A stretch of DNA of 64,000 nucleotides, from NCBI GenBank assembly GCA_964648665.1, contig CAZYOA010000009.1, positions 83 through 64,082 of the forward strand. The letters run 5' to 3'. Shown piece by piece: positions 5,081 through 62,800 of the stretch (positions are counted from its first letter, which is position 1; each line of letters begins with the position of its first letter). Both the position numbers and the translations under genes were made by a program. This DNA is from an uncultured Planctomycetales bacterium. GTDB lineage: Bacteria; Omnitrophota; Gorgyraeia; Zapsychrales; Aceulaceae. Below the pieces are notes generated by a model, which made no database searches, had not been told where the DNA came from, and worked only from the letters and a program-made list of their open reading frames with translations.

Positions 5081-5130
5081 TTAGAACGATTATAACATAA
5101 AAGAAATTAAATAAGATTGTTTATCTGCAA

Positions 5131-5571
5131 TTATTTTGGCTGAATTAATATTTGTGCGCCATCACCCACATTGATATCGTAAACATCCGCAAATCCTGCA
5201 TTCACCTCTAAAACATATCGAGCAGGTTGACTGCTACCATATGTCGGACAAGATTCCGAAAGGCATGGCGGTGCACTTTTTTCAATATAAATAACTTCTC
5301 CAGCGTTATTAAGCCAAATAATGTCTAGCGGAATAAGCGTATTTTTCATCCAAAATTTTGCTTCGGCCGGTTGATCAAATATGAAAAGCATGCCAACATC
5401 TTTATCTAAACTTTTTCGATATTGAAGGCCTTGAGACAACTCTTCGGACGTTTGAGCAAGCTCAATTGAAACGCATTTAGAATCAAAACAAGCCTGCGAT
5501 TGCTTCTGTTGGCACCCAACAAAAGTAAAACAAATTAAAAATAGTCCAAAAATAATAGAGCGCTTCATCAT
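5131..5571 (-). CDS. DUF192-family lipoprotein
   Basis: Lipoprotein signal MMKRSIIFGLFLICFTFVGC, plus DUF192-like MLFIF...FWMKNTLIPLDIIW...YVLEV. Confidence 0.7.
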   Translation of the reverse strand: MMKRSIIFGLFLICFTFVGCQQKQSQACFDSKCVSIELAQTSEELSQGLQYRKSLDKDVGMLFIFDQPAEAKFWMKNTLIPLDIIWLNNAGEVIYIEKSAPPCLSESCPTYGSSQPARYVLEVNAGFADVYDINVGDGAQILIQPK

Positions 5572-24173: not shown

Positions 24174-25532
24174 TTATAAATAACTCAAAGCCTCTTTTGC
24201 CGTTTCAACCCCAATTAAATCAAGACCATAAGATTTAAGCTGTTTTTGATTCTTTAAATTATTTTTTGGTAAAATACATCTTTTAAATCCAAGCTTATGA
24301 GCTTCGTTAACTCGCAAAGCAACCTGGCTAACACTTCGGACTTCAGAAGAAAGACCGACTTCACCAATCACAACGAGATCAGATGAAATTTTCTTATCTA
24401 AAAGCGCTGAAGCAACAGCTAAACAAACACCTAAATCTGCGGCTGGATCCATTACCCGAACACCTCCAACAACATTTAAAAATATATCCTTATCTTGTAG
24501 AGACAATCCATTCTTTTTTTCTAAAACAGCTGCAAGTAACGCTAATCGATTTGAATCAAAGCCCTGTGTTTTTTGTCGAGAAATTCCAAAATTAGCTCGA
24601 CAAACCAACCCTTGAATTTCAACTAAAAAAGGTCTTGTGCCCTCTAAAATCGGAACAACAACTGACCCCGACGAACCTAAAGCGCGTTCAGATAAAAATA
24701 TTTCTGATGGATTTCTAACTTCTTGCAACCCTTCAGCCGTCATTTCAAAAACACCCAATTCATTCGTTGAGCCAAATCGATTCTTTGTTGTACGCAAAAC
24801 ACGATAGCTTGAATAACGTTCACCTTCAAAATATAAAACCGTATCTACTAAATGTTCTAAGACTCTCGGACCCGCCAAAGCTCCATCTTTTGTTACATGC
24901 CCAATCAAAATAACTGCAATCGATTTTGTTTTCGCAAGCTGAGTTAAAAGTGACGCACATTCGCGAACTTGGCTAACGCTTCCTGGACTTGAAGAAAAAT
25001 CTTTTTTATAAACCACTTGAATTGAATCCACAACAACAACATCTGGCTTTAGTTCATTAATCTGATCTAGAATCAAATCAAGATCAATTTGATTTACCAT
25101 GTAAAGTTTTGCTTTTTCTTGCTCAACCAGCCGATCTGCCCTCATTTTTGTTTGCTTAACAGATTCTTCTCCACTAACATAAAAAACTTTTTGACCTTTT
25201 GTGCTCAAAAGACACGCAACCTGAAGCGCAAGCGTAGATTTTCCAATTCCAGGATCTCCTCCAAGAAGAACAACAGAGCCCGGAACAACTCCGCCACCTA
25301 AGACACGATCAAATTCCTGATTCGTAGTTTTAAAACGATTTTCACTTTTCGCAATTACATCGCTAAGCAAAACTGGACTTTGCTTTGAAAACATTTCATC
25401 CCTTGGTGTTTCAACAGGATTAACACGTTCTTCGACAAATGAATTCCAGCTATGACAACTTGGACACTTTCCAAGCCACCCAGATGATTGAGCGCCACAT
25501 TCTTGGCAAACATATAGTGTTTTTGTTTTCAT
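24174..25532 (-). CDS. radA: DNA repair protein RadA/Sms
   Basis: N-terminal zinc finger CQECG...CPSC, Walker A GDPGIGKST, a KNRFG motif and a Lon-like C-terminus. Confidence 0.94.
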   Translation of the reverse strand: MKTKTLYVCQECGAQSSGWLGKCPSCHSWNSFVEERVNPVETPRDEMFSKQSPVLLSDVIAKSENRFKTTNQEFDRVLGGGVVPGSVVLLGGDPGIGKSTLALQVACLLSTKGQKVFYVSGEESVKQTKMRADRLVEQEKAKLYMVNQIDLDLILDQINELKPDVVVVDSIQVVYKKDFSSSPGSVSQVRECASLLTQLAKTKSIAVILIGHVTKDGALAGPRVLEHLVDTVLYFEGERYSSYRVLRTTKNRFGSTNELGVFEMTAEGLQEVRNPSEIFLSERALGSSGSVVVPILEGTRPFLVEIQGLVCRANFGISRQKTQGFDSNRLALLAAVLEKKNGLSLQDKDIFLNVVGGVRVMDPAADLGVCLAVASALLDKKISSDLVVIGEVGLSSEVRSVSQVALRVNEAHKLGFKRCILPKNNLKNQKQLKSYGLDLIGVETAKEALSYL

Positions 25533-25536
25533 AATA

Positions 25537-26502
25537 TTAAAATTTAATATTTTTCTGTATTGTTAACATATCCGATTCTTTATCTCCAAGAGATCCGGGG
25601 TCAGTACGCATTAAATATTTAAACTGAGTCTCACTTTCCCCTTTTTCTCCTTTTTCTTTCCGAATAGTCCATTCTCTCTGAACATCTGTTTCCCGAATTA
25701 AAGGAGCAACTTTAAGTCTTGCAATTTGCTGTTCAAAACCATCAAATCCTTTTGAAAGATCAACAACTCCTTCGACATTAGCGCTTACACCACCTTCTTC
25801 AGTGATGCTCGTTTGCGTTAAATTAAAAGTCGGATACATTCCCTGAAAATTTAAGACAATATTATCATATTCAAAATCTTCAATTTGTCCCCCATAAGAA
25901 TTTAAACTTCCTTTAATCTCCGGATCTCTTGAAAGCCCCTCAACTTGAATTTTTCCTGAAACCCCACCCTTCAAGAATAAATTATGTTCTGGATTAACCC
26001 AAGACAAAAAGTCAACTAACGAAACATCCAAAAAAATAAGCGAGAAATTAATTGCATATGGCTTAAGCAAAGATAAATATCCTCGAGCAGTCAATCCTTT
26101 TAAAAATATTGGATCAAGAAAGAATTTATCATCTCTAAACTCAAATGTTCCTAAAGATGCGTATTCCTTATTGCCCGTGTTTGGATCTTGCATATCCATG
26201 CCAATTGCACCACGAATAAAAGAATCTTTATTTTTACGCTTAACAACTTTTGCTGTTCCACTTAAAGATGTAGATATATCAAAAACAAGCGTTTTTAAAT
26301 CATAAGCTGCAATATCAAAATCAATTGCATCATCGCTGACACCAATGCTTTTAAAGAAAATAAGGCCGTTATCAGGAATGTTAACCTCTAAATTTAATTC
26401 CTTACTTAACAAATCTACATTTCCTCGAAAAGTAAAATCTGCACAAGCAGTTTTTGCCAATAAAAGCAAACTTACAATAACAAAAATAAAAGTTCTTAAC
26501 AT
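25537..26502 (-). CDS. Hypothetical secreted protein
   Basis: 321-aa ORF with signal peptide MLRTFIFVIVSLLLLAKTACA. A beta-rich body carries G-x-V/I-x-G spaced motifs faintly reminiscent of AsmA/TamB repeats. No family was recognised. Confidence 0.6.
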   Translation of the reverse strand: MLRTFIFVIVSLLLLAKTACADFTFRGNVDLLSKELNLEVNIPDNGLIFFKSIGVSDDAIDFDIAAYDLKTLVFDISTSLSGTAKVVKRKNKDSFIRGAIGMDMQDPNTGNKEYASLGTFEFRDDKFFLDPIFLKGLTARGYLSLLKPYAINFSLIFLDVSLVDFLSWVNPEHNLFLKGGVSGKIQVEGLSRDPEIKGSLNSYGGQIEDFEYDNIVLNFQGMYPTFNLTQTSITEEGGVSANVEGVVDLSKGFDGFEQQIARLKVAPLIRETDVQREWTIRKEKGEKGESETQFKYLMRTDPGSLGDKESDMLTIQKNIKF

Positions 26503-28929
26503 TTATTCAAAAGTCAATTCTTGATTTTTACGCTTAGCTTTAATAACGCTTCCTTCTTTAAAACGACCAGAAATAATGTGCTCCGCTAAAGGATCTTCTA
26601 AAAATCGCTGAATTGTCCTCTTAAGCGGTCGCGCACCAAAAGCTGGATCAAATCCTTTTTCAATCAGAAACTCAACAGCATCTTTTGAAAGTTCAATATG
26701 AATATCTTTTTCTTTAAGCCTTTTCACAACTTCATCAACTTCTAAGTTAACAATATGAACAAGATCTTCTCTTGTTAAAGATTGAAAAACAATAATATCA
26801 TCAAGTCGATTTAAAAACTCTGGCTTAAATGTTTTCTTAATTTCATCTAAAAGACGTGTCTTCATATCTTGATACGTTACTTCTGTATCTTGAGAAGCAA
26901 ATCCTAGAGAACCTTTTTGGCGCAAGATTTCAGCACCAACATTTGATGTCATAATAATAATAGTATTTCGAAAATCAATACGCCTTCCTAAGCTATCCGT
27001 TAGACGTCCGTCTTCTAAAACCTGAAGAAGAAGATTAAAAACATCTTGATGTGCTTTTTCGATCTCATCTAAGAGCACAACAGCATAAGGTCTACGTCTT
27101 ACCTTTTCTGTAAGCTGTCCACCTTCTTCATACCCAACATATCCTGGAGGGGCGCCAATTAAACGAGAAACATTAAACTTATCCATATACTCCGACATAT
27201 CAATTTGAATAATTGAATTTTCATCTCCAAACATAGACTCAGAAAGCACTTGTGCAAGCAATGTCTTTCCAACACCCGTTGGACCTAAAAACATGAACGA
27301 TCCAATTGGACGTGCAGGATCTTTAATTCCTGCACGAGAACGACGTACGGCACGAGCAATCGCACTAATAGCTTCTTTTTGGCCAATAACTGTCCCCGAC
27401 AAGCTTTCCTCAAGCTTAAGAAGTTTTTCAGTTTCTTTTTGTTCCAATCGAATCAAAGGAATCTTTGTCCACTGTGCAATAACTTTAGCAATGTCTTCTT
27501 CAGTAATCGTTGGCGTTACACTGTCTCGATGCTGCATCCATTCCTTACGCATAACATCAAGTTTTTCTCTTGCTTCACGCTCCTGATCGCGCATCTGAGC
27601 TGCTTTCTCAAAGTCTTGACTTTTAATAAATGCTTCTTTTTCTTGCTTTAGATGTTCAATTTGTTCTTCAGACTTTTTAATATCTTTAGGAACAATCATC
27701 ATGTCTAAACTTGCACGAGCACCCGTTTCATCTAAAAGATCAACAGCCTTATCTGGTAAAAAACGTCCAGATACATATCGATCAGAAAGCTTAGCTGCTG
27801 CCTCAATAGCTTCGGGTGAATATTTAACTCTGTGATGAGCTTCATACCTATCTTGAAGCCCTCGTAGGATCTGAATTGTTTCATCCACAGATGGCGGCTC
27901 AACCATAATCGTCTGAAATCGTCTTTCTAAAGCCGCATCTTTCTCAATATTCTTTCGATATTCATCAATCGTTGTTGCCCCGACACACTGAATCTCTCCT
28001 CGAGCCAATGCAGGCTTTAGAATATTTGCTGCATCAATTGCGCCTTCCGCAGCTCCAGCACCTACAAGAGTATGAATTTCATCAATAAATAAAATAATTT
28101 TCTTAGATCTCTTGATTTCATCCATAATCGCTTTGATGCGCTCTTCGAATTGTCCGCGATACTTTGTACCCGCAATCATCATCGCAAGATCAAGAACAAT
28201 GATGTTTTTATCTCTTAAATTCTCTGGAATATCTCCTTCAACAATTAGCTGAGCAAGACCTTCAACAATAGCTGTTTTTCCAACCCCAGCTTCACCTATC
28301 AAAACAGGATTATTTTTATTTCTACGTGTTAAAATTTGAATAATACGCTCAATCTCCATTTCTCGACCAATCACAGGATCAAGCTTGCCTTCCTTGGCAA
28401 GTTTATTCAAATTTCTTCCATAAGCATCAATCGCTGGCGTCTTTCCTTTTTTTGTTTTCTCTTCTTCTGCGTTATAGCCTGGAATGCCAGAACCGAGAAG
28501 TTCCATAATTTCATTTCTCACTTTTTCCAAATCTACACCCATATTTAAAAACACACGATACGCAACGCCTTCCCCTTCTCGAATAAGACCAAGAAGAAGA
28601 TGTTCTGTTCCAATATAATTATGTCCTAACGCCCTAGCTTCTTCAGCTGAAAGCTCCAAAGCTTTCTTAGATCGCGGTGTAAACGGAATATCACCCATGA
28701 CTTGAGTTTGAGGACCAGGCTGAACAACTTTTTCAACTTCAATTCGGATTGACTCCAAATCAAGACCTAACTTTTGTAAAACAGCAGCAGCAACACCTTC
28801 TCCTTCTCGAACAAGACCAAGAAGCAAATGTTCTGTGCCAATATAATCATGATTAAATCGTTTAGCTTCTTCTTTAGCTAAAACAATAACTTTTCGTGCA
28901 CGTTCTGTAAATCTATTAAACATATACAT
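26503..28929 (-). CDS. clpC: ATP-dependent Clp protease ATP-binding subunit ClpC
   Basis: Duplicated Clp_N repeats ([10 protein letters not shown] x2), two AAA+ modules ([16 protein letters not shown]) and a UVR-like linker. Confidence 0.95.
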
Positions 28930-28968
28930 CCTCCTCGATAATAAAAAAATAATGTTAAATCAATTTTC

Positions 28969-30021
28969 CTATAATTTCTCTAATTTTTGCCGGATAAGCT
29001 CGGCTCGCTTTGTATCACGCTCGGAAGCACCTAATTTCTTCCCTTCGATCTTTTGAAGATGAGCAGGCTGAATCATAATAAATAATTCATTAATCGATTG
29101 CGTGCTAACATCTTTAACAATTCCTAAATCAATACCAAGACGAACCATCGATAAAAGATCAACAGTTTCTTGACTAGAAATAATATGCGCATTCTTTAAA
29201 ATTCCTAAAGAACGACAAATCTTGTCTTCCAAGATTGCTTTATTTTGAACCAGCAGCGCCTGACGAGCCTGCTCTTCCTGCTCAACGATCTGCTTTACAA
29301 GACCATTAATATTTTGCAAAATATCTTCTTCACTGTGACCTAAAGAAACTTGGTTAGAAATCTGAAAAAAGTTTCCAATCGCCTGTGTTCCTTCTCCATA
29401 GAATCCACGCGATGCAAAGCTTAATTTTGCAATCGCTTCCAAAACTTTATTGATTTGCTTTGTCATAACAAGCGCTGGCAAATGCAACATCACAGATCCA
29501 CGAATTCCTGTACCAGTATTCGTAGGACAAGCTGTAAGATATCCCCAATCTTTTCGAAAAGCATAACAAATCTTTTCAGATAGAAAATCATCAATCATAC
29601 TAATAATTTTCCAAGTCTCAAATAAATTAAATCCAGACTGCATAACCTGAATACGTAAATGATCTTCCTCGTTAATCATAATCGATAGAATTTCTTCTTC
29701 AGAAACAACAATCGCTTTTCCTTCTCCCGATGCAGCATGATCATGACTCATCAAATGTCTTTCAATAAGAAACTGACGATCTAAATTATCCATTTCATTA
29801 ATTTTAAGTAAAACAGTATTCTTAAAATATTCATTAGAATGAATCGCCTGTTCAATAACACTAAAAACTTCAGCCAAATCTTTGCGATTCGCCCGTGCAG
29901 GAAATGGAATTTTATCCAAATTACGTGCTAAACGAACCCTAGAAGACATAACAATGTGCGATTGTGGACCAGTTCCTTTAAGCCATTCACCAGTTTGATG
30001 GATAAGATCTTCTAAATTCAT
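28969..30021 (-). CDS. mcsB: Protein arginine kinase McsB
   Basis: Guanidino-kinase catalytic domain (SSRVRLARN...EEDHLRIQ...CPTNTGTGIR); ATGA overlap with mcsA. Confidence 0.9.
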   Translation of the reverse strand: MNLEDLIHQTGEWLKGTGPQSHIVMSSRVRLARNLDKIPFPARANRKDLAEVFSVIEQAIHSNEYFKNTVLLKINEMDNLDRQFLIERHLMSHDHAASGEGKAIVVSEEEILSIMINEEDHLRIQVMQSGFNLFETWKIISMIDDFLSEKICYAFRKDWGYLTACPTNTGTGIRGSVMLHLPALVMTKQINKVLEAIAKLSFASRGFYGEGTQAIGNFFQISNQVSLGHSEEDILQNINGLVKQIVEQEEQARQALLVQNKAILEDKICRSLGILKNAHIISSQETVDLLSMVRLGIDLGIVKDVSTQSINELFIMIQPAHLQKIEGKKLGASERDTKRAELIRQKLEKL

Positions 30022-30548
30022 GCATCCTCCTGCGTATTTTCAGAAGATCGTATTTGATCACGCAATATAGCTGCTTGCTCAAAATCTTCTGCTAAAATAG
30101 ATTGCTGCAATTTATTTTTTAAAATCTGAAGAGAATTTTCTTCAGGCAAAGAATCCTGATCTTGAACTTCAGCCTCAGTCTTTTCTCTAAGCTGAATCGG
30201 CGTTTTTCCTAAATGATGATTTGATCCATGAATCTTCTTTAAAAGCGTAGACAAATGTTTACGAAAAGAAGAATAGCATTCACTGCATCCAAGACGTCCA
30301 AACTTTCTAAAATCATCATAGCTTAATGAACAATTCGGACATTGAAGTTTTACTTTTTCTTCAGCTTTAATCTGCTTACCAAAATCAGATAATCCAGCCA
30401 AAAGATCAGCAAGACCAAACTGCTGCTCCATCTGAACACTGCGCTCTTTAGCGCAATCTTCACAAATATGCATCTCCGTCATCTGACCATCAATAATCTC
30501 TGTCAAATGAACTGTCGCTTTTTTCTTTCCGCAAGAATCGCACTGCAT
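30018..30548 (-). CDS. mcsA: McsA (UvrB/UvrC-motif, zinc-finger activator of McsB)
   Basis: Two CxxC...CxxC zinc-finger pairs (CDSCGKK...CEDC; CPNC...CSEC) and the C-terminal UVR motif EDFEQAAILRDQI. Confidence 0.85.
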   Translation of the reverse strand: MQCDSCGKKKATVHLTEIIDGQMTEMHICEDCAKERSVQMEQQFGLADLLAGLSDFGKQIKAEEKVKLQCPNCSLSYDDFRKFGRLGCSECYSSFRKHLSTLLKKIHGSNHHLGKTPIQLREKTEAEVQDQDSLPEENSLQILKNKLQQSILAEDFEQAAILRDQIRSSENTQEDA

Positions 30549-34839: not shown

Positions 34840-34868
34840 ATTATATAGAAAAGCATAAAGACTGTCAA
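34840..34868 (-). promoter_or_regulatory. Consensus sigma70-type promoter for lysS (TTGACA-17 nt-TATAAT)
   Basis: The minus strand reads TTGACA (34868..34863), GTCTTTATGCTTTTCTA (17 nt), then TATAAT (34845..34840). It lies about 45 nt upstream of the lysS GTG. Confidence 0.6.
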
Positions 34869-34870
34869 CG

Positions 34871-34896
34871 AAAAGCGCCTGGCTTAAGCCAGGCGC
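34871..34896 (-). terminator. Rho-independent terminator after lexA
   Basis: Perfect 9-bp GC-rich stem GCGCCTGGC-TTAA-GCCAGGCGC (34875..34896), followed on the minus strand by TTTTCGTT. Confidence 0.75.
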
Positions 34897-34975: not shown

Positions 34976-35569
34976 CTAAAAATATCTACGGATGCTAGTC
35001 ATTACTTTTCCAGCGATCGTAGTTTCTGCTGTAAAAGGAATTGGTTGATATTTTGGGTTAGCTGGAACAAGAAAATAATGCACTCCGATCTTGCTTAAAC
35101 GCTTAACCGTAGCCTCTTCGCCTATTAAGGCGACCACAATTTCACCAACTTGAGCAACTGTTTGTCGTCGAACCATCACAAGATCGTTCGGCATGATACC
35201 AGCCTCAACCATACTATCCCCTTTAACGCGCAAAGCAAAGATATCAGAATCTGAGAAATAAATATCATCCAAGTCCACATATCCTTCGATATCTTCAACA
35301 GCCAAAGATGGAATGCCTGCGGCAACAGCCCCTAAAATAGGAACACGGAAAGCATCCTTAACCAATTCGATAGCTCGTGCTTTTCCCTCATTAACCCGAA
35401 TATAACCTTTTTCAACAAGAGCTTTAAGATAATCTCTCACAGTTCCTGTAGAAGAAAATCCAAATTCTTTAGCAATCTCTCGAATTGTTGGTGGAATTTG
35501 TTCATTTTTAATTTGATTAAAAATGAACCGCAAAACATTTTTTTGTTTACCTGTTAAGTTTTTAACCAT
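34976..35569 (-). CDS. lexA: LexA repressor
   Basis: N-terminal winged-HTH (PTIREIAKEFGFSSTGTVRDYL), Ala-Gly cleavage site (VAAGIP), and S24 peptidase Ser (VKGDSM) and Lys (VKRL). Confidence 0.92.
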   Translation of the reverse strand: MVKNLTGKQKNVLRFIFNQIKNEQIPPTIREIAKEFGFSSTGTVRDYLKALVEKGYIRVNEGKARAIELVKDAFRVPILGAVAAGIPSLAVEDIEGYVDLDDIYFSDSDIFALRVKGDSMVEAGIMPNDLVMVRRQTVAQVGEIVVALIGEEATVKRLSKIGVHYFLVPANPKYQPIPFTAETTIAGKVMTSIRRYF

Positions 35570-35575
35570 GGACTG

Positions 35576-35604
35576 ATATTACCACACACTTGTGTGGTTG
35601 TCAA
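35576..35604 (-). promoter_or_regulatory. lexA promoter (TTGACA-17-TAATAT) with a palindromic operator candidate ACCACACA-AG-TGTGTGGT in the spacer
   Basis: The minus strand reads TTGACA ACCACACAAGTGTGTGG TAATAT CAGTCC ATG. The inverted repeat is at 35581..35598. The -35 box overlaps the thiF stop codon. Confidence 0.6.
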
Positions 35605-36206
35605 GAAGTGAGGATACGGCTTAAAATAGCATCAGCCTGCTTGGCTGCAGCAACATTAACTCTTGGAGATAATGGCGAGGCGTCTTGACTGTCGGTTTTA
35701 AGGTCGCCCACAAGAACAAAATTATCTTTAATATATTTCGTTTTAATTTCATCAGCTTGACCAATACCAGATATTCCAGATGCGCAAACAACAAATTTAT
35801 TTGTTTTTAAGAAATGTTCAACAAAAATACTTTTATATTCAGCCTTATCAAGGGCCTCAACAACAATATCACAATCAACAAATAAATTCTCAATACTATT
35901 CTTATCAATTTTCTTAGAAGAAATTTCTAAGTCAATATCTGGGTTAATACGTTTTAAATTTTCTTCTAAAACTTCTACCTTCTTTTTTCCTACCTGATCA
36001 TAAAAATAAAATTGTCGATTTAAATTCGACCATTCAATATTGTCAAAATCAATAATTGAAAAATGCTTAAATCCAACACGAACTAAATTAAAAGCACAAT
36101 TTGATCCAAGTCCACCTGCACCTGCAACACCAATCCTTACCGATTGAATTTTCTTAAATTTCTGCTCTCCAAAAACTTTTAAAAGAGATTGCTCAAAATC
36201 ATTCAC
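35601..36206 (-). CDS. thiF: ThiF-family adenylyltransferase (ThiS adenylyltransferase, short form)
   Basis: Rossmann motif GVAGAGGLGSN...DFD of E1-like ThiF/MoeB. Last gene of the thi operon; GTG start. Confidence 0.82.
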   Translation of the reverse strand: MNDFEQSLLKVFGEQKFKKIQSVRIGVAGAGGLGSNCAFNLVRVGFKHFSIIDFDNIEWSNLNRQFYFYDQVGKKKVEVLEENLKRINPDIDLEISSKKIDKNSIENLFVDCDIVVEALDKAEYKSIFVEHFLKTNKFVVCASGISGIGQADEIKTKYIKDNFVLVGDLKTDSQDASPLSPRVNVAAAKQADAILSRILTS

Positions 36207-36207
36207 T

Positions 36208-37320
36208 CTAAATCGCCATCCAATCTTTTAAAACTGGTTGATACCCCTTTTTTTCTAAAAACTCAATCATCTCGCCAACATCGCGTTTATCTGATATTTC
36301 AAATTGAGCTGTTATGTTATTTTCATCCTCAATAGCTGTATGTCCACCCACTTGCGTTGTTGATCCTGCTGACATGCGCGTAATTCCAAGAGGTAGCATA
36401 TTCTCTCGAAATTCTGAAGATTCTCTCGTCGACAATGTAACGCCAAGTCTTGGTAAGAAAATACGAAATGCTAAAATCATTTGAACAATTTCTTTATCTT
36501 GCACAATGCATTTTGGCTTAAAATCCCCTTGTGCTGGACGAAGTCGTGGAAGAGAAATGCTTATTTCTGCATCAAAGAATTTATTTTGCAAATACTGGGC
36601 ATGAAGTCCAAGCAAAAAACTTTCTTTTTGCCAATTGCTAAGGCCTAATAAAACGCCAATATTAACTGTTCGCATTTTTTCAGCCAATGCTCTCTCTGGT
36701 GCATCTAAACGAAATAAATAATCAGCCTTAGGACCTGCAAGATGAACAGAACCATAAACATCTTTGTCATAAACTTCCTGATAAATCGTTAAGCCATCGA
36801 CACCACAAGCAACAAACTCTCGATACTCATCTTGTGTTAGTGTATAAATTTCCAATGAAATAGAAGAAAAATATTTTTTTAAAATCTCAACACACTGCTT
36901 AATATATTTTACAGGGCTTTTCGTTCGCGAGCTTCCTGTCAAAAGAAGAATATGCTTTAATCCTGTTTTTGAAATAAATTTCGCTTCTCTATCCACCTCA
37001 TCAAAACTTAATTTTTTTCTTTGAATCTTATTCGTTCGATTAAATCCACAATACACACATTCATTTTCACAAAAATTTGAAACATACATTGGCGTATACA
37101 ACTGTATTATTTTTCCAAAATATTGACAGGTAAGACCGTGAGCGCGTCTTGCCATCTGCTCTAAAAAAGGTTCTGCACTCGATGACAAAAGAGACAAAAA
37201 TTGATCTGAAGATACGTTGTTTGAATCAATTGCTTTTTGAATCATTGAAGGACGAACAGAAGCAAAAAACTTTTGAATATCAAAATTCTCATAATTCTTT
37301 AAGATATCATTAAAACTCAT
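36208..37320 (-). CDS. thiH: 2-iminoacetate synthase (tyrosine lyase) ThiH, radical SAM
   Basis: Radical-SAM cluster motif CENECVYCGF; 370 aa; sits between thiG and thiF. Confidence 0.9.
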   Translation of the reverse strand: MSFNDILKNYENFDIQKFFASVRPSMIQKAIDSNNVSSDQFLSLLSSSAEPFLEQMARRAHGLTCQYFGKIIQLYTPMYVSNFCENECVYCGFNRTNKIQRKKLSFDEVDREAKFISKTGLKHILLLTGSSRTKSPVKYIKQCVEILKKYFSSISLEIYTLTQDEYREFVACGVDGLTIYQEVYDKDVYGSVHLAGPKADYLFRLDAPERALAEKMRTVNIGVLLGLSNWQKESFLLGLHAQYLQNKFFDAEISISLPRLRPAQGDFKPKCIVQDKEIVQMILAFRIFLPRLGVTLSTRESSEFRENMLPLGITRMSAGSTTQVGGHTAIEDENNITAQFEISDKRDVGEMIEFLEKKGYQPVLKDWMAI

Positions 37321-37322
37321 AT

Positions 37323-38105
37323 TTATGCTTTCTGAGCCTCTCGCAAGAAACCTGTCAAAGGCGACGACGCATCTGCCTTTTTTATTACTGGACCCAATCC
37401 TGAAAGATATGCAAGACGTCCAGCTTCAACGGCCAGCTTAAATGCTCTTGCCATTGAAACCGGATCTTTAGCAACAGCAACCGCTGTATTAACCAAAACA
37501 GCGTCGCACCCAAGCTCCATGCATTCCGCAGCCTGCGCAGGACTTCCAATTCCGGCATCAACAATAACAGGAACTTCTATTTCATTAATCAAAATACGCA
37601 CAAGCTCTTTTGTCTTTAGCCCTCGATTGCTTCCGATCGGAGCTCCTAAAGGCATTATAGCTTTAGCCCCTGAATCAACTAAACGTTTTGCCGCCATTAA
37701 ATCTGGACTCATGTACGGTAAGACGACAAAACCTTCTTTTGTTAGGATTTCTGTAGCCTTGATTGTTTCCATGTTATCAGGCAATAAATATTTATTATCT
37801 GAGATCACTTCGATCTTTATCCAGCTTCCGCACCCAGAAGATTTTGCAAGACGAGCAATACGCACCGCCTCTTCAGCATTGCGTGCACCAGAAGTGTTTG
37901 GCATCAATAAACAACTTTTTGGAATATAATCTAAAATATTTTCATCATCTGAATCCTGATCAACACGACGAAGAGCAACAGTAACAACATGTGCGTCACA
38001 AGAAATCAAAACGTCTTTGACTATTCTTTTGCTTGGAAATTTTCCCGTTCCAATAAACAAACGGCTTTTAAGATTCTGATCGTCAATTCTTAAAATATCA
38101 CTCAT
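37323..38105 (-). CDS. thiG: Thiazole synthase
   Basis: TGKF...VTVALRR...LLPNTSGA...[10 protein letters not shown] pattern of ThiG. Start is ATG 38105 (or GTG 38108). Confidence 0.92.
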
Positions 38106-38107
38106 CA

Positions 38108-38308
38108 CTATCCTCCTCCAACAAAACTTATAATTTCAATAATATCTTCTTGTTTCACACTAAAAGAAGAAAGTTTTTCTCTGTCAACAATCACTGCATT
38201 ATGCTCCACAACAACTTTATTTTTATTTAACCCTTTTCTCTCCAAAAGCTCTAATAGTGTTGAATCAGAATCAACATCTTCCTCTTTTCCGTTAATACGA
38301 ATTTTCAT
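38108..38308 (-). CDS. thiS: Sulfur-carrier protein ThiS
   Basis: 66-67 aa with a ubiquitin-like fold pattern, ending in ...FVGGG. ATGA overlap with thiE. Confidence 0.88.
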
Positions 38309-38946
38309 CACAATCCTCTTTTAATAATTCTTTCCTTAAATGCTTTTGTGCTTTGCACAACATCATCCGCCGCTGCAATCGCACGAATAACAGCAATGTT
38401 GCTCGCTCCTTTTTCTAGAAGAACATCAACATTTTCTAAATTAATTCCGCCGATAAAGATTACAGGTTTTTGAGCAATATCTAAAATATTTTCAACATCA
38501 TCAAACCCGATACAATAATCTTTTGTTTTTGTATGAAAAATTGGACCAAAAGCTACATAATCACAATCTATTTCTTGCGCATCTTGAAATTGCTCAATGC
38601 AATGCGTTGAAACACCAATTATTTTCTCTCTCCCAAGAATAGCTCGCACATTATCAATTGGATATTTTTTTAAATCTTCTTGCCCCAAATGAACTCCATC
38701 AGCGTTAATCTCTTTTGCTAAAAAAGGATCATCATTGACAATAAAAACAATATTATTTTCTCGACAAAGAATCAACAATTCTTTTCCAATTACAACAAGA
38801 TCATCTTTACTCTTATCTTTTTCTCGCAATTGCACAATGTCAACACCACCTAAAATTGCATCTCTAGCAACATCTAGCGTCTTCTTAGGGCTACTATATT
38901 CTTCGCCAGTAACAAAATATAAACTGTAATCTTTAATTTTTTTCAT
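38308..38946 (-). CDS. thiE: Thiamine-phosphate synthase
   Basis: LYFVTGEE...VQLREK...VHLGQEDL...IGVSTH...YVAFGPIF motifs. ATG 38946 follows the riboswitch terminator; the track start at 39051 runs through the riboswitch. Confidence 0.9.
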   Translation of the reverse strand: MKKIKDYSLYFVTGEEYSSPKKTLDVARDAILGGVDIVQLREKDKSKDDLVVIGKELLILCRENNIVFIVNDDPFLAKEINADGVHLGQEDLKKYPIDNVRAILGREKIIGVSTHCIEQFQDAQEIDCDYVAFGPIFHTKTKDYCIGFDDVENILDIAQKPVIFIGGINLENVDVLLEKGASNIAVIRAIAAADDVVQSTKAFKERIIKRGL

Positions 38947-38967: not shown

Positions 38968-39000
38968 AAAAAGAAAAATCCACCTCTGATCTGAAGTGGA
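38968..39000 (-). terminator. Riboswitch expression-platform terminator hairpin plus U-tract
   Basis: The minus strand reads TCCACTTC-AGATCA-GAGGTGGA (8-bp stem including one G-U), followed by TTTTTCTTTTT. Its CAGATCAG segment is complementary to CTGATCTG of the aptamer, giving an alternative pairing. Confidence 0.7.
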
Positions 39001-39009
39001 AAATAAAAT

Positions 39010-39130
39010 TCTTTTTCTCCCTACGCTGGCATTATCCAGATCAGGTAACACTTACTTTCTAAGAAGTAAGATAACGGGTCTTCTGCCTACATCGCAGCGT
39101 TCTCAGAGCGTTACGCGCACTCCCCGGATT
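39010..39130 (-). promoter_or_regulatory. TPP (THI-box) riboswitch
   Basis: The minus strand reads GGGGAGTGCGCG...CTGAGA...ACCTGATCTGGATAATGCCAGCGTAGGGA, the conserved THI-element core. It lies directly upstream of thiE. Confidence 0.9.
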
Positions 39131-39140
39131 TGTATTCTTG

Positions 39141-39301: not shown

Positions 39302-40012
39302 TTATTTTTTGTCTGTCGAAGCATCTAATTTTCTTTGCTTTTTCTTCTGAGTCGCACTAACTTTATTCTGCTTCTTTTGACGAACAGTGTCTAACTTTTC
39401 TTGTTTCCTGTCTTGAGAAGTCTGAAGCTTTTCTTGACGCCCCTGTCTTACTTCTGCCTTTTTATGATCTTTAGCCTCATCGTTATCAAGTTTCTTTTGC
39501 GTCATCATATCTTTATTTTCTTGTCGCTTTCTTTGGCGAGCTTCTTTTTTACTTTGCTTTTTTTCACGACGCATTTCTTTTTTAGATTGCTTTTTCTCTG
39601 TTACAGCACCTAGCTTATCTTGATTTTTCTTCTGAGTTGCGCTAACCTTATTCTGCTTTTTTTGACGAACAATGTCTAGATTTTCTTGTTTCCTGTCTTG
39701 AATAACCTGAAGATTTTCTTGATGCCCCTGCCTTACTTCTGCCCTTTTATGATCTATAGCCTCATCTTTATCAAGTTTCTTTTGCGTCATCATATCTTTA
39801 TTTTCTTGTCGCTTTTTTTGACGAACTTCTTTTTTACTTTGCTTTTTTTCCTGACGAACTTCCTTTTTATTTTGCTTCTCTTGTCCCCTCGCATCTAATC
39901 TTTGAAAATCATTTCCTTTTTGCCCTTGAACACTTCTTTGCGCAAAGACAGACGTTGATGTCAACGCACAAAATAGAATAACAACTAACCCAAGCAACAT
40001 TTTTCTTTTCAT
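39302..40012 (-). CDS. Secreted K/Q/R/E-rich protein with two 95-aa tandem repeats
   Basis: Signal peptide MKRKMLLGLVVILFCALTSTSVFA. The mature part is almost entirely charged or polar residues, with two long near-identical repeats. Start is ATG 40012 (TTG at 40015 in the track). Confidence 0.75.
   Translation of the reverse strand: MKRKMLLGLVVILFCALTSTSVFAQRSVQGQKGNDFQRLDARGQEKQNKKEVRQEKKQSKKEVRQKKRQENKDMMTQKKLDKDEAIDHKRAEVRQGHQENLQVIQDRKQENLDIVRQKKQNKVSATQKKNQDKLGAVTEKKQSKKEMRREKKQSKKEARQRKRQENKDMMTQKKLDNDEAKDHKKAEVRQGRQEKLQTSQDRKQEKLDTVRQKKQNKVSATQKKKQRKLDASTDKK
39311..39880 (-). repeat. Tandem direct repeat, 2 x 285 nt (in-frame coding repeat)
   Basis: Copies at 39311..39595 and 39596..39880. 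The antisense ORFs in the track at 39401 and 39686 are offset by exactly 285 nt and near-identical. Confidence 0.85.
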
Positions 40013-40039
40013 CAAGATTTCCTTTCTTTAAAAAATAAT

Positions 40040-55843: not shown

Positions 55844-56719
55844 TTAATTAATTAACTTATTTAACGGATACTCAATGATTCCACAAGCACCAGCCGCTTT
55901 TAATTCAGGGATCAAAATACGAACAACATTTTCCCGAATCACCGTCTCAATAGCAACCCATCCCTCTTTCGCTAATGGAGCAACCGTTGGATTTTGAAGC
56001 GCTGGAAGCACTTTCAAAATTTTCTTAAGATCTTTTTCTTTAGAATTCATTTTTAGGCCAACCATGCTCTCGGCATCCAAAGCACCTTTTAGAAGCATCG
56101 CAATTTGTTCCATTTTCTTACGCTTCCATGAATCTTTATAAGCTTTCTTGTTAGCAATAAACTGAGTTGTTGATTCGCAAACTGTTGAAACAATGCGAAG
56201 TTTATTTGCCTTTAAACTACTTCCTGTTTCGGTAAGCTCAACAATAGCATCCACAAGACCTGATGCTACTTTTGCTTCTGTTGCACCCCAGCTAAATTCA
56301 ACTTCAGCTTTAACTTTATTCTTTTTCAGATATCTTTTTGTTGCATTCGCAAGCTCTGTAGCAATGCGCTTTCCGTTTAAACCTTTGACAGTTTTAATCT
56401 TTGATGTCTCAGGAACAGCGACGACCCATCTTACTTTTGATGCGCTCTGCTTAGCATACAAAAGATCCGCAAGACTAACAACATCAGACCCATTTTCTTC
56501 AATCCAATCAGCTCCAGTGATTCCGCAATCAAGCGCTAAATCTTCAACATAGCGAGACATTTCTTGCGCACGTAAAAGTACAATTTCAATCTCATTATCA
56601 TCAATCACAGGAAAATATGAACGGCTTGACATGCGTATTTTAAACCCTGCGCGCTGAAATACATTAATTGTTGATTCCTGAAGACTTCCTTTTGGCAATC
56701 CAAGCTTTAACTTTTTCAT
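55844..56719 (-). CDS. hisG: ATP phosphoribosyltransferase (long form)
   Basis: [10 protein letters not shown]...[13 protein letters not shown]...core and a C-terminal regulatory domain; 291 aa. Confidence 0.9.
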
Positions 56720-56826: not shown

Positions 56827-59800
56827 TCAGTCTTTAAGCAAGCTTAATTCTCTAGGCCTATCGGCCTTCTGAAGATCTTGAGCCCATTTTAAATTCTTGG
56901 TGTCTTTTTCACTTAAACCTAAAACCAGCAAGACATTTACAATCGGAACAATATTAATGATAACAGGAATAAATCCTTGAATCGTATCAAAATCAATACC
57001 TTGAAGTTCTACTGGCATTTCAAATTCAATCGAATCGCCTTCAGTCTCCAAATCCCAATTATTTCGATCAAAATCAATACCACCGGTAGCCCTTGCAGAG
57101 ACAGTATCTTCGAAAACAAGAACTTCTCCCTTTTTATAATTCGAAACAATCTTAAATCCTGCCTGCGTGAAACTCTCAATAATGTAATCAGGCATACGAT
57201 TATCATAGACTCTCATATCCATTTCTTCTCGGTTAGAAAACGCAAAACATAAAATCCCGCCAGGAGCAAGAACACTCTTTAGGCTCTCAATTACCTGACC
57301 TACCTTTTGTTTAGATTCCCCTGACGCATCATTTTTTAAAATATAATTTAAAACAGAAGCAGCAAAAATAACATCAAATTTCTTATCCTTTAGTACTGAG
57401 AGATCAAGGAGATCTGCCCTTTTAGCCTTAACATTATGCTTTTGGCGCGCAAAGCGCGTTCCACGAAAACTCCTGTCAGCTGCCATAACATGAGCACCTT
57501 GCTTTTTAACCCACCTAAGAAATTCCCCATCTTGCCCAGGTGCAATTTCTAAAACTTCCTTTTCCTCCCAAGAATATTCAATCTTTTCAAGCTGATTAAT
57601 AGCTTCGTGAGTTGATCTGCTAAACCAAATATACAAATCATCATTTTTATCCTCACCATAATACTTAGGCCCATAACACTCTTGCTCGTGAGAAGAATCA
57701 GGAGTTCGGTCCAAAATAGACTTCATCAAACTTTGAACTTCTTCTTTAGAAGCATTTCTTAAATTACTTTTCTCCTCAAATAATTCATAAATCAACCAAT
57801 CAAACTTATAAAAATTCTTTTGCGCAAGTTCGGTTAATCTTTTCTCAATAGCCACAAGAATACGTTTTGACGAAGAATCCCCGGAGAAAATATCTCTTAA
57901 CTCAGGCAAAATTCTTTCTTCAAAATATCTCATTCTTCCATAACGGCCATACGGTTCTTTTTGCAAGATTTTTCTAAACGCATCAATCTTTTTTTCTGTT
58001 AAAAATACCGACGATCCTGCCCTTTGACTAATCGTAGAATTATTTTCATCCTGCGCGGGGTTGACGGCAGAAAGGAAAGAATCTCTCACTTGGCTATCAT
58101 CCAACAAATCACTAACAGAATCTACAGAAAAGTGCACACATCCATTAACAAAAGACCTCCAAGTCTCTGTTGTTTTTAATTCTTCAGGAATCCACTTCAA
58201 AGGTCTCACATAATACTCCTTGAGTGATTTGGAATCCAAAGCCCAAGGACCCACAAGAAAAAAAGAATTTTCTTTAGCTTGACTAGGGCTCTTAAAATAT
58301 ATGTCCTTAATTCCAAGATCTTTCGCCACTTTGACAACTTGCTTAACCGCTTCTTGCGACCAAGCGCGAAAAGGAGATTTTATTTTTGTTTCTTTTAAAA
58401 CTTTTGCCCCAATCTGCAAAACTCCAGCAGAAGCCTGAACTTCGTTAATATATATGCACGGCTTATCATCAACATGCTCAATCATAACGCCAATCTGCCC
58501 TAGGGAGCCAACGGCAGGATAATATTTATCCTCTGGCTTAAGATTAAGCTCTTCTTTCTGATTTTCAGTCAAAATCTCTGAAGGATTATCGAGCATAACA
58601 CTAAAACTGTTCCCTTGTCCGTAAAAACTTACCTGAACAATACCCTTTTCCTTGTCTCCTGCGTCTACAGGCCAAGAGAAGCTTCTTTTATTTAAAGCTT
58701 TCTTTAATTGCTCTGCTAATTGTTTTTTTAACTCATCAGAATTCTTCTGCGCCTTATCAGCAACCTCATTCCTCACCACACTCGATGCACTCTTAACCGG
58801 CAACATCTTGCACACATGTTCTTCTGTTAACTCTGCCAACCCATCTCTAATTAAGCTTTCCCATAATTTTTCTGCCGGATACACCCTTTTTTTAGGATTT
58901 TTTTTGTCAATCTGCCGAAGAAAGTTACCGTAAGAAACAACAACACCTTGATCGTTCACACTTAGAGCATCATTAATCGCAATATAAATATTTCTCCCAA
59001 TTTTCTTACGTTCAGGACTCACACTCATATAATCAATTGATAGATCAAAAAAGCTCTCATAAAAAAGAGAAAAACTTCCGATCTCATGATTATTCTTATT
59101 TTTAATAATGATTTTCGCATTATTGCCTTTTATAATTTCAGGCTCTACGACCTCTAATTTAAGACCATCAAGCGATAGAACTGATCGCCCAATCTCTTGA
59201 AGTTTTTTATTAGCATCAAAAGTGATCTTATTAAAATACACTTTAGGATCCTCGAACCGCTTTGAATCCATGTTAATCTTTCCATCACCCAACTCGCTCG
59301 ATGCGCCAGTTACATCCTGCGCGAAATTAACGGCAACAGAATTTACCGTCTGTACGCGATCGACATCACCCTCCGCTGCTGCAACTTGAGAATTTTTGTT
59401 TTCTAGTATAGCTGGAAGCATTCGATAAGCTAATTGTTCATTTTCATCTATAAACGATTCTGCCAATCCTCGGATGACAAGCTTGTTCATCATCTCTTCG
59501 GATTTATAAATAGGTGCACCTTTATATCCCGGCTCATGAATTGCGTCGGAAACGCCTGAAATTTTTTCTACAACTTTGCCGTTATGCGCTCCAAGCGCTT
59601 CGTTGAGGGCAATAAAAATTGCCGGCCCTATTCCTTGCCTTTGGATAGAAAGAAAAATACTGAACACCTTTAAATTGCCGGAATTTTCAGGAAGAACCTC
59701 CAGCGCCCCAATACACTTACTATCTTTGTAAACATCAGCAAAAAGCCACGGACTTATTTGCGTTTCGCTCCACTTAAGCTGAATACCTCTTTCGTAAAGC

Positions 59801-62800
59801 TTCTTGCTTGCATTCGCCGCAGCCATAATATTAAGGAAATCATCTTGGCTAACCGCCCACATGGCGGGATCAAGAACGGAAGAAGAAGTGTTCTTGCCGC
59901 GCTGGGGGGTGGGAATTTTCTTTCTGAAAGACAAAGAAATACTTTTATCCTGATCACTGGCGCTCACTACCGCAAAGTCATTCTCTTTCTGCGCAACAAT
60001 CGTTAACACAGTTGATTCATGATTGTCTTGATATAGCTTCTCTTTGCCTTCCGTTATATCTCTAAGAATCTTAAATCCATTTTTCTGAATTAATTTTATT
60101 AATTTACCCCCAGAAGAATGATTGCGACTGTATCCTTTATTTTTAAAAAAATACATTCCATCTATTCCTAAATACGTATCCCCTTCAACAAAAAAAACGT
60201 CATTCACAGACTTTGTTTGAATAATAACTTTTCCGCCTTTTTTCAAAATCCTGTTGATTTCTAATAACAATCGCCCTTGAATCGAATCCCCTAAGTAATG
60301 AAGACCTAATCTAAAATAAACCGCATCAAATGAATTATTTAAATATGGCAAATATTTCTCAAAATCAACTACTTCTACTTTTATATTCGACACACCCTTA
60401 CTGGATCGCCTAAGACTCTTAATTATTTCTGAATTCTTATCCGTTGCAACAACTTCCATCTCATTCTCTGCAAAATAAATCTCATCTGCACCACTCCCGC
60501 TTCCTAAAGAAAGGATTTTCTGCCCTTTTGTGAGGATTCCTTTTTGAATCATTTCAGCAGCTAAAAGACTTGGGTTAAGGGCTCGATCTAGAATGTCTTT
60601 TACGATAGGTTTCGCCGAAAATTGAAAGTCCTCAAAAAACTCTTGATGATCAACATATTTAACAGTATATCCATGATCAGCAGAAACTTTAAATCGAGAA
60701 TCTTTCTTAAGACTTAGAAAAATATCATTCGCCCCATCATGCTGCAATCCACCAACACTGTCCGATCGGTATTCTTTAATATCGCCTTTAGATAAGAGCA
60801 GAACAACTGATCGCAAATTAAATCCTTGTCGCGAAATCTTATAAGATGCGGTTCTCTCTCTCCACTTACATTCATAAAAACGATTCTCAACATCAAAATC
60901 CATGCTTGAATAAGCTAACATCGGCGCATCTTTATCGGAAGCATCTAAAACAAAAACATTACATAGAGGATGCTCATTCTCTTGATCATCAACAGATCTC
61001 ACAACAAAAATTCTAAGAGAAATCGGATTTTTTATTTCCTTAGGAGAAAGTGACAAAGTCTGAAGATCCTCTTCTTTGTCAAATATATTTTCCATAACCA
61101 AAACTTTACGTTTTCCTAAGAAATCTCTCACAGCTTTTGGAAACACCTCATCATCTCCCATGTAAACAAATCCTTTTTGAGGTTTTTCCATATCAAGATC
61201 CAAAGAATCATAAAAACGCCCTTGCCCACCATTACCTGCAAGTAAATCAGACGACGCACTCTTTCTTTCTTTATTATCATCAATAGAGGCCTCTTGCTTT
61301 TTTCCAAAAATACTTTTCTCTGGATCAAGCTTTGTTGAAACAACTATATCCGGTGAGCCAGGAAGAAAGAAGATATCACCTGATCCATCACCCTCATCAT
61401 CTCTTGATTCTGAAACCTTTTCCTTTTTCACTCTTTTCTTTTTAACATGAACAAAATCCGGCGAAACACTATTTGCACCTATCCAACTACTTGCTTTTTT
61501 CTCTTTCTTATCAGAAGTTTTCTTCAAATCCTTAATCTCTTTCTCGAGATTCTTCCATGCTTTTGCTATTCCTGGAACTTCTTTATCAGCTAATCGTCGT
61601 ATTCGCCTATCGTTCATCAACAAAGAAACAACCGAATACATCAGCTGAACACCTGTAATATAAAACGTTCTCGCCCGAGGCTCTTGATCATTATTCTTTA
61701 AATGAAATGGAGGCAGTCCCACCATCATAGCCCCAACGGTAAATATTAATCTTAATTTCCATTTGCCGCCCTGCTCAAGACCAAACAAATCATCTGTTTG
61801 CTCCATCCACCTATAAAACTCTTGAACCATTCGATCATATGTTATAAATGGCACAGGATTGGCATATTCATCATCAAGGTATTCGTAAAAATGCGGAACT
61901 TCTGAATCCTGTCTTGCAAGAGGATAAAATCCATATACAGGTTCAAGCCTTGCAACATCATATTTTCCTAAGAAATTATGAACCAGCTTAGCTAAATCAT
62001 ACAAATAATCATTTCCACCAGGAGAATCCTTTGGATCAATTAATCGATAATCTCGAAATTCACCATAATAAGGAATATCCAGCATTTTTACGAGGATGTT
62101 TCCATAGTTAAGATCTCCGTGATCCTTAGATAGATACGGAGGAACAAAAAATCCTACTTTAGCTAAGGCAGAAACAAATGGCTTTAATGTTTCAAATCCC
62201 GGCAAATAAGTTACGCTAGAAGTTTCTCCAGAAACGCCGATGATAGGTGCATCAATCATCTCCACAAGACAAGGAGCTTGATCTTTTGTATCTTCAAGTC
62301 GAGTTGAAAGTTTCTTCTCTAAGATATTTTCAATAACAAAGTCAACAGAACCCTCTGATACTTTTTGCTGATATAAATCCAACTGATCTTGATAAACCCT
62401 AAGACCAAGTTTCCAAATATCTTCTGCACTTACCCCCTCTAAAGTGTTCTCTAATAAATTTATTGAATTCCAATGAGATATGCTCGTAACAGGAAAGTAT
62501 CCTTGATATTCAAGATCCTCCATAACAACAACAATTCTTTTGTCATCTTCTTCATAGCTATAGATTTCAGGATAAGGTTTTCCACGCGCCTTTTCTTCTT
62601 TTATAACCTTAACCTCACCTCTTAATTTGCCGCCATCAACCTCAGAATTCTTATACGCAGTCTTTCGAATTGCAAATTTTCCATTTGGCAAAACAATTCT
62701 CTCAATCGCATTTCCAGATCCTCCAATATAGCCTCCTAAATTTTCAACAACATCACTTGGCTGATCTTCTTCTTGCTTTCCACGAATATCTTCATACAAG

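Follow-up and report, generated by a model that had tools for sequence, protein, structure and literature searches.

The locus described here raises the question of whether a palindrome that fills the promoter spacer of a lexA gene is the binding site of the very LexA protein encoded behind it. The gene lies in a 64,000-nt stretch of DNA from an uncultured bacterium of the phylum Omnitrophota (contig CAZYOA010000009.1, positions 83 to 64,082; hereafter the window, whose own coordinates are used throughout), in which lexA, the preceding gene thiF and their promoter are read on the minus strand. Direct reading of that strand from 35604 to 35567, upstream of lexA, gives TTGACA-ACCACACAAGTGTGTGG-TAATAT-CAGTCC-ATG (Table 1). 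This is exactly the string of the original prediction, which had the palindrome filling the spacer between the -35 and -10 hexamers and the -35 hexamer overlapping the thiF stop codon; both statements held when the sequence was re-read. From comparison across genomes, we consider the dyad at 35582..35597 very probably to be the operator of this organism's own LexA.

The protein itself has the expected anatomy. Its winged helix-turn-helix (wHTH) domain (PF01726, residues 3-66) and its S24 peptidase domain (PF00717, residues 77-190) score 74.5 and 107.6 bits, respectively, and it aligns end to end with the E. coli LexA structures. In that alignment the Ala-Gly cleavage site (VAAG), the Ser (GDSM) and the Lys (TVKRL) are kept, so the window LexA is, as judged from its sequence, complete and apparently cleavable. 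Because window residue 3 pairs with E. coli residue 2, the ATG at 35569 is taken as the true N-terminus; an in-frame TAA lies 12 nt upstream of it and the next internal Met only far inside the protein, and therefore no alternative start is available to lexA. The exact protein and its closest relatives are found among proteins of Candidatus Omnitrophota metagenome-assembled genomes (MAGs); among named species, 'Ca. Aceula lacicola' comes closest (89% identity). In the consensus scan the lexA promoter has 10 of 12 hexamer matches, a 17-nt spacer and TG before the -10; the right arm of the dyad together with the following TA reads TGG-TAnnnT, an extended -10.

To see whether this arrangement recurs, lexA loci were picked by protein similarity alone and their upstream DNA was then inspected. 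All 14 Omnitrophota loci have a TTGACA-like -35, a 17-18 nt spacer holding CCACAC-N4-GTGTGG, and a -10 that opens with TA directly after GTGTGG. In most of them unrelated genes stand upstream, with no thiF; the promoter is kept nonetheless, which supports the original claim that it is real. A symmetrised weight matrix built from the 14 sites scores them at 22-29 bits, apart from a degenerate site in locus L008 (14.5 bits). The window site reaches 28.6 bits and is the only above-background match in the 64 kb, the runner-up (10.5 bits) being within the shuffled range. Across ~490 kb of lexA loci from many phyla, matrix matches fall almost only at the lexA promoters of Omnitrophota and a few outgroups. 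By this comparison the dyad is conserved in the promoter of lexA itself, as would be expected of a LexA operator.

The exact form of the dyad emerges from position counts over 17 protein-selected sites, namely the 14 at lexA and three at umuD (described below). CCACAC and GTGTGG are kept, and the N4 centre and the left flank are variable. The outer A·T pair is complementary in only 7 of the 17 sites and the inner pair in 9, so that the motif first proposed, ACCACACA-N2-TGTGTGGT, gives way to the conserved form CCACAC-N4-GTGTGG. The TA after GTGTGG is near-invariant (16-17 of 17 sites) yet has no symmetric partner, and we therefore count it as part of the -10, outside the dyad. The left arm plays no part in the promoter, yet its conservation equals that of the right arm. 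Within the window the palindrome pattern with up to 3 mismatches occurs once, against 0.06 expected.

The dyad also stands before other SOS genes. A scan of metagenome contigs with the pattern CCACACNNNNGTGTGGTA gave 80 loci, and in 16 of these an SOS-type gene lies at or just downstream of the site, where by our own estimate chance would supply well under one. lexA follows the site in 13 of the 16; among these, lexA is followed by a Y-family polymerase gene in L176, L202 and L210, a small zinc-ribbon open reading frame (ORF), lexA and recA lie behind the site in L226, and L208 has a second operator before the DUF6625 gene that precedes lexA. Locus L220 carries umuD-umuC behind TTTACA-tCCACACGTTTGTGTGG-TATTTA-gtaggt-ATG, and its UmuD has Omnitrophota MAG proteins as nearest named relatives; in L211 and L244 the ATG of a Y-family polymerase gene directly abuts the dyad. 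In a test blind to the motif, six Omnitrophota umuD loci were fetched by protein identity, and three (L295, L296 and L297) proved to have a site of 18.7-24.0 bits directly upstream, in the same architecture. recA was seen behind the dyad only as part of a lexA-recA operon, in one high-GC lineage (L226); a tblastn search with E. coli RecA located recA in L226 alone and did not find it in the window or in the Omnitrophota loci examined. The core LexA regulon across phyla comprises lexA, recA, dinB and umuDC (PMC8565304), and the loci above place the predicted operator upstream of core SOS genes other than lexA, through umuDC, Y-family polymerases and lexA-recA.

These loci yielded several further observations. 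In L189 (site ~1140, minus strand) and L208 (sites 151-170 and 1252-1271), both low-GC contigs, an operator-bearing and partly leaderless promoter precedes the gene before lexA, whose product has an NYN domain in L189 and is of the DUF6625 family in L208; in L208 an operator also lies directly upstream of lexA. The NYN-domain and DUF6625 genes are possible new regulon members. Most Omnitrophota umuD-umuC loci also hold an SRAP (YedK-type) gene, which follows the pair in L296, L297 and L299 and precedes it in L300; the SRAP family is known to be linked to the SOS response, with which this neighbourhood is consistent. In L221 a Bro-N protein with phage anti-repressor similarity lies behind the motif. 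The bare pattern also gave false positives: in L182, L225 and L250, high-GC contigs, GTCCACAC-N4-GTGTG recurs every 147-150 nt in what are apparently coding repeats, and L203 (870-2290) holds a ~280-nt tandem repeat with CGCCACACTTTCGTGCGGTC in every unit.

The recognition helix of LexA varies together with the operator. CCACAC-N4-GTGTGG is paired with the helix STG(T/S)(V/A)RD(Y/H)(L/I) in Omnitrophota and relatives, CTGCAC-N4-GTGCAG with STNGVRAIL in Zixibacteria and Ignavibacteria, TAGCAC-N4-GTGCTA with STWTVR in FCPU426 and ELA348, and CGAAC-N4-GTTYG with S(T/S)STVHGHL in Firmicutes. The sole helix exception for CCACAC is L008 (STATVRDHL), the locus with the degenerate site. An AC-N4-GT core and identical spacing are common to all these dyads, and this, together with the helix changes, fits what is expected if one repressor-operator family had diverged.

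The CCACAC type extends beyond the Omnitrophota. In L235 (lexA 5076-5699, minus strand) and L018, LexA has the helix RSTGTARDH and lexA has the operator CCAC(A/T)C-N4-GTGTGG and a leaderless GTG start; the two proteins cluster, at no less than 73% identity, with proteins named Verrucomicrobia or Verrucomicrobiia in several assemblies, and L175 falls in the same clade. The LexA motif of Verrucomicrobia, a neighbouring phylum of the Planctomycetes-Verrucomicrobia-Chlamydiae group, is reportedly TGTTC-N4-GAACA, likewise a palindrome with an N4 centre, with a half-site that differs from CCACAC. If that motif is correct, the CCACAC clade would be a second motif class in Verrucomicrobiota. The suggestion that the dyad is the LexA motif of this lineage thus gains from its conservation at lexA, its association with SOS genes and the helix covariation, and needs amending in that the dyad is not lineage-confined, being carried also by the Verrucomicrobiota clade and by phage promoters.

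Among characterised boxes, the Gram-positive (Cheo/DinR) box CGAAC-N4-GTTCG is likewise a dyad with an AC-N4-GT core, the same half-site spacing and a similar length, and it too belongs to a LexA of the wHTH plus S24 type and to lexA autoregulation; a box of the CGAAC type was recovered upstream of lexA in Alkaliphilus and Desulfosporosinus loci. The two differ in the two bases outside the core (AC-AC in Omnitrophota, GA-AC in the Gram-positive box), in the conserved outer C/G pair that the Omnitrophota dyad adds, and in the helix (STGTVRDYL here). The Fibrobacter-type box, said to be TGCNC-N4-GTGCA, has the same geometry. CTGCAC-N4-GTGCAG was recovered upstream of lexA in the Ignavibacteria and Zixibacteria loci, with weaker versions in Fibrobacter loci; its half-site is separated from that of Omnitrophota by a single base (GCAC vs ACAC, at the position 5' of CAC), and this type is paired with STNGVRAIL rather than STGTVRDYL and has a leader with a Shine-Dalgarno (SD) sequence in the examined locus L016. 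The E. coli SOS box CTGT-N8-ACAG is also a dyad over the promoter, with autoregulation and control of umuDC and recA (PMC8565304), but its half-site and spacing are different. On its xxAC-N4-GTxx geometry the dyad groups with the Gram-positive, cyanobacterial and Fibrobacter boxes and not with the E. coli type; judged by these alignments, what is new here is the ACAC half-site and its outer C. The difference from known boxes that had been claimed therefore applies in full to the E. coli box, whereas the Gram-positive box, with its common core and spacing, is not unrelated.

Two binding sites of other proteins were considered and rejected: the NrdR box has the spacing ACAC-N8-GTGT and not N4, and the DnaA box TTATCCACA needs a T before CCACA, a position that is variable among the sites. 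Searches of the accessible literature found no paper linking LexA to Omnitrophota or Omnitrophica or reporting this dyad, nor a candidate-phyla survey, and CCACAC-N4-GTGTGG is not among the LexA motifs listed in PMC8565304, PMC7739468 and PMC3789691.

Table 1. Features of the lexA region in window coordinates
Feature	Position	Strand	Basis and remarks
-35 hexamer TTGACA	35599..35604	-	Sequence and consensus promoter scan; houses the thiF TGA (35601..35603)
17-nt spacer ACCACACAAGTGTGTGG	35582..35598	-	Sequence
Predicted LexA operator core CCACAC-AAGT-GTGTGG	35582..35597	-	Weight matrix and cross-genome conservation
18-nt perfect palindrome	35581..35598	-	Ends in the T with which the -10 hexamer begins
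-10 hexamer TAATAT	35576..35581	-	Consensus promoter scan; TGn extended -10 just upstream, supplied by the right arm of the operator
CAGTCC between -10 and start	35570..35575	-	Sequence
lexA ATG start codon and predicted transcription start	35567..35569	-	6 nt past the -10, no SD; N-terminus matches E. coli LexA
lexA coding sequence, 197 aa	34976..35569	-	Pfam LexA_DNA_bind and Peptidase_S24; full-length match to solved LexA structures
Terminator-like hairpin GCGCCTGGC-TTAA-GCCAGGCGC, then TTTTCG	34875..34896	-	Terminator scan; downstream of lexA
thiF, last gene of the thi cluster	35601..36206	-	Pfam ThiF and gene table of the identical contig L170; ends 31 nt before the lexA ATG
thiE-thiS-thiG-thiH	36208..38946	-	Pfam TMP-TENI, ThiS, ThiG and Radical_SAM/BATS (gene table of contig L170); tightly packed upstream of thiF
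Terminator-like hairpin	38979..39000	-	Terminator scan; directly after the aptamer match, just before thiE
Probable thiamine pyrophosphate (TPP) riboswitch aptamer, sub-threshold	39001..39136	-	RF00059

The arrangement suggests how the promoter would work. A LexA dimer on the dyad would fill the 17-nt spacer between the -35 and the -10 and would also cover the TGn extended -10 contributed by the right arm, masking the -35-proximal spacer and the TGn contact together. RNA polymerase would thereby be excluded and lexA autorepressed. Upon DNA damage, RecA-stimulated self-cleavage of LexA, involving the Ala-Gly site and the Ser/Lys dyad, would free the promoter, and transcription would then start at or beside the A of the ATG, 6 nt past the -10, yielding a leaderless mRNA that would be translated without an SD sequence. 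The same promoter-operator-leaderless design would drive umuDC in other Omnitrophota, which would make the dyad the SOS box of the lineage.

The predicted leaderless start follows from the spacing. The A of the lexA ATG is the seventh base after the -10 hexamer (35581..35576), the usual position of a transcription start. At all 14 lexA and all 3 umuD genes of Omnitrophota the start codon follows the -10 after 5-8 nt (mode 6) and there is no SD, for which so short a stretch leaves no room. No SD-like 4-mer was found in the 20 nt upstream of the window's lexA ATG. Outgroup lexA genes have leaders of 20-30 nt with a GGGAGG-type SD in three of four cases (L014, L015 and L016), and the fourth, in a Verrucomicrobiota-labelled MAG (L018), resembles the Omnitrophota genes in its 6-nt distance and in lacking an SD. 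In E. coli, lexA is preceded by an ordinary SD-containing leader. The leaderless arrangement without SD that had been claimed thus recurs well beyond the window, where the distance is 6 nt, its geometry being kept in 17 of 17 Omnitrophota promoters. From the -10 spacing and the missing SD we infer that the lexA mRNA is leaderless, with a predicted start at the start codon.

Leaderless mRNAs have been described in Actinobacteria and Deinococcus, where the -10 likewise lies ~6-7 nt from the AUG or GUG, an SD is missing and transcription starts at the start codon; the Omnitrophota case differs in that conserved geometry is the sole argument for it and in being tied to the SOS promoters of an uncultured phylum. 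Literature searches found no report on leaderless use in Omnitrophota. Two other window genes have TATAAT a few bases upstream of the ATG and no SD, namely a histidine-kinase-like gene (TTATGTTATAATCGTTCTAA-ATG, 3539-5080, minus strand) and the gene at 55844-56719 on the same strand (GGATTATAATCGTT-ATG). This genome may make frequent use of leaderless or SD-independent initiation.

A number of points weigh against this interpretation. All support for LexA as the binding protein is comparative, and the covariation of helix and operator tracks phylogeny, so those observations are not independent. No second weight-matrix site was found in the 64-kb window or in ~10 kb past its left end. Three of the six named Omnitrophota umuD loci have no site, and neither do L301 and L302, which hold unnamed UmuD relatives of unassigned taxon; going by these loci, the box serves umuDC in part of the Omnitrophota, not in all. 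The expectation that the motif would recur at other damage-inducible genes is thus borne out at L220, at half of the blind umuD loci, at Y-family polymerase genes and at lexA-recA, and fails at the other umuD loci; in the window and the flanking DNA covered, where no recA, umuDC or dinB was found, lexA carries the only site. As to translation, the absence of an SD is by itself weak evidence for a leaderless start, since 21 of 43 tested ATG-start window ORFs have no SD-like 4-mer (22 have one); because SD sequences are used in this genome yet often missing, the conserved spacing is the real argument. Some other protein could recognise the dyad in phages, including a gut contig where Omnitrophota are unexpected. 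Finally, read-through from the thi operon is a plausible additional source of lexA mRNA, which would leave the conservation of the promoter unexplained.

Could lexA do without a functional promoter of its own, as the last cistron of a thi transcript that is translated from a polycistronic and not a leaderless mRNA? The genes thiE-S-G-H-F-lexA lie on one strand with 31 nt from the thiF stop to the lexA ATG and no intervening terminator, the first terminator-like hairpin coming after lexA. A probable TPP aptamer precedes thiE. A TPP riboswitch was not found there at the Rfam gathering score; in a permissive local search (601 nt) RF00059 matched with 41.3 bits against a gathering score of 54.3 (E = 1.1e-6), with the CUGAGA and ACCUGAUCUGGAUAAUGCCAGCGUAGGGA cores intact and a 43-nt insertion in the P3 region, so that a riboswitch upstream of thiE is probable from its sequence, below the curated cut-off. 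The original description of lexA as the last cistron behind a TPP-riboswitch-controlled thi operon accordingly stands for the gene order, with the riboswitch being a sub-threshold match. As the only source of lexA mRNA, the thi transcript is nevertheless improbable: the -35, spacer, -10 and 6-nt geometry recurs in 14 of 14 lexA loci, mostly behind unrelated genes, L001 carries the same promoter in a ~75-nt intergenic gap, and there is no SD for internal initiation at lexA.

The only serious rival to LexA as the binder is another protein, and it rests on the phage data. According to this alternative, the dyad is the operator of a non-LexA regulator (e.g., a phage-type repressor) or a generic promoter-spacer element, and stands at lexA by coincidence. 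Run on viral contigs, the pattern used for the metagenomes gave 96 matches in 89 stretches, 80 of which were listed. In 21 of the 96 the dyad sits within a sigma-70-type spacer, in the form TTGAC-(N)-CCACAC-N4-GTGTGG-TATAAT, in ~10 distinct phage groups; the fully symmetric TACCACAC-N4-GTGTGGTA occurs in 17 of the 80 viral loci listed, compared with ~6% by chance. Behind these phage promoters come ordinary leaders with an SD, and LexA genes are absent from their vicinity. For a generic spacer element, the right arm makes a TGn extended -10 and would be selectable for promoter strength alone, but the left arm, equally conserved, has no such role. Against a non-LexA binder speak the specific tie of the dyad to lexA, umuDC, Y-family polymerase genes and lexA-recA operons, and the covariation of the LexA recognition helix. 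The phage sites are themselves compatible with LexA: control of phage promoters by host LexA is well known, for example for GIL01 (PMC4551915), and for this reason they fit the model of a LexA operator. We regard a binder other than LexA, or a generic spacer element, as unlikely, with a probability under one in ten.

One phage family consists of L090, L099, L114, L138, L116, L120, L141, L151 and L153 from IMG/VR together with L213, which are 50-120 kb contigs with a GC content of 0.36-0.39 that share the promoter TTGACG-TACCACACGAATGTGTGG-TATAAT. L213 is a human-gut contig with its site at 4021-4040. In this family the promoter mostly lies upstream of a 67-aa ORF without a PHROG match. The same operator-in-spacer design was seen in the phage groups L084/L133, L106, L135, L111, L157, L130/L148 and L100.

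That the palindrome acts as an RNA hairpin, for instance by terminating or attenuating transcription where thiF ends, is very improbable, and we rejected it. A 7-bp stem with a 4-nt loop can form, but its fold is unexceptional (z = -1.5, matched by 16 of 200 shuffled sequences), there is no U-tract behind it and the terminator scan did not report it. Moreover, across the 17 sites the arms are conserved in sequence and not by compensatory changes, and the dyad is also present where no gene ends upstream. A chance origin can be set aside almost entirely. Such palindromes are no rarity in the AT-rich window, which holds 18 perfect ones of the 8+8 type (loop 0-4 nt), compared with a mean of 11.6 and a maximum of 17 in Markov-1 simulations, so the palindrome alone is statistically unremarkable; its significance comes from cross-genome conservation, the same arms recurring at an identical place in the promoter across dozens of independent genomes.

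With LexA retained as the most probable binder, a broader proposal can be put forward tentatively, and we would sooner bet against it than for it as a whole. CCACAC-N4-GTGTGG and the helix STG(T/S)(V/A)RD(Y/H)(L/I) may constitute an unrecognised LexA specificity class, found in Omnitrophota, the Verrucomicrobiota clade and further uncultured lineages on contigs with a GC content of 0.37-0.67. The core SOS genes of Omnitrophota and the Verrucomicrobiota clade (lexA, umuDC and Y-family polymerases) might be equipped with one portable unit of -35, spacer operator, -10 and leaderless start, and phages, including the human-gut family, might have copied the operator-in-spacer promoter to sense the SOS state of their hosts.

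The surroundings of lexA offer some additional observations. Downstream of it are the terminator-like hairpin (34896..34875), lysS with a perfect consensus promoter of its own, TTGACA-17 nt-TATAAT (34868..34840, minus strand), lolCE/lolD and an mcsA-mcsB-clpC-radA cluster. The perfect promoter, between the lexA terminator and lysS, indicates that this genome uses canonical sigma-70 hexamers. In the cluster (24174-30548, minus strand), mcsA (UVR), mcsB and clpC are followed by a gene for a 321-aa protein of unassigned function and radA, a gene order familiar mainly from Firmicutes. Close by on the upstream side of the probable TPP riboswitch, 39302-40015 (minus strand) encodes a 237-aa Lys/Glu/Gln-rich protein with a signal-peptide-like N-terminus and no Pfam hit on record; it contains two near-identical internal repeats of ~90-100 aa (…KKEVRQ(E/K)KKQSKKE(V/A)RQ(K/R)KRQENKDMMTQKKLD…). 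At the left end of the window, a tmRNA (Rfam; 1-315) is cut by the window edge and adjoins smpB (378-842). Beyond that edge, the sister contig L173 (278-7616) carries a phage-type integrase, an ORF6N-domain gene and ~9 unannotated small ORFs, a region that looks like an island integrated at ssrA; no weight-matrix match was found in it. The right end of the window is occupied by a very long ORF of 2387 aa (56827-63990, minus strand).

LexA is unusual among global regulators in that its binding motif has changed repeatedly in evolution, and each new motif aids the reconstruction of that history (PMC8565304). Omnitrophota are a widespread and almost wholly uncultured phylum for which our literature searches found no regulatory motif. 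Overall, we present the dyad as a computational prediction with good support: a novel LexA-box variant, set in promoters whose leaderless design is conserved in this phylum. The CCACAC-N4-GTGTGG operator would make the SOS regulon predictable straight from MAGs, and the half-sites GAAC, GTAC, GCAC and ACAC, each with its own recognition helix, would offer a ready system for studying specificity change at constant geometry. The uniform leaderless lexA and umuDC promoters suggest that SOS induction in these bacteria proceeds without SD-dependent initiation. The same operator in phage promoters could provide a handle for phage-host linking in metagenomes; if phages did copy it, the gut phage family would imply an unrecognised gut host with this type of LexA.

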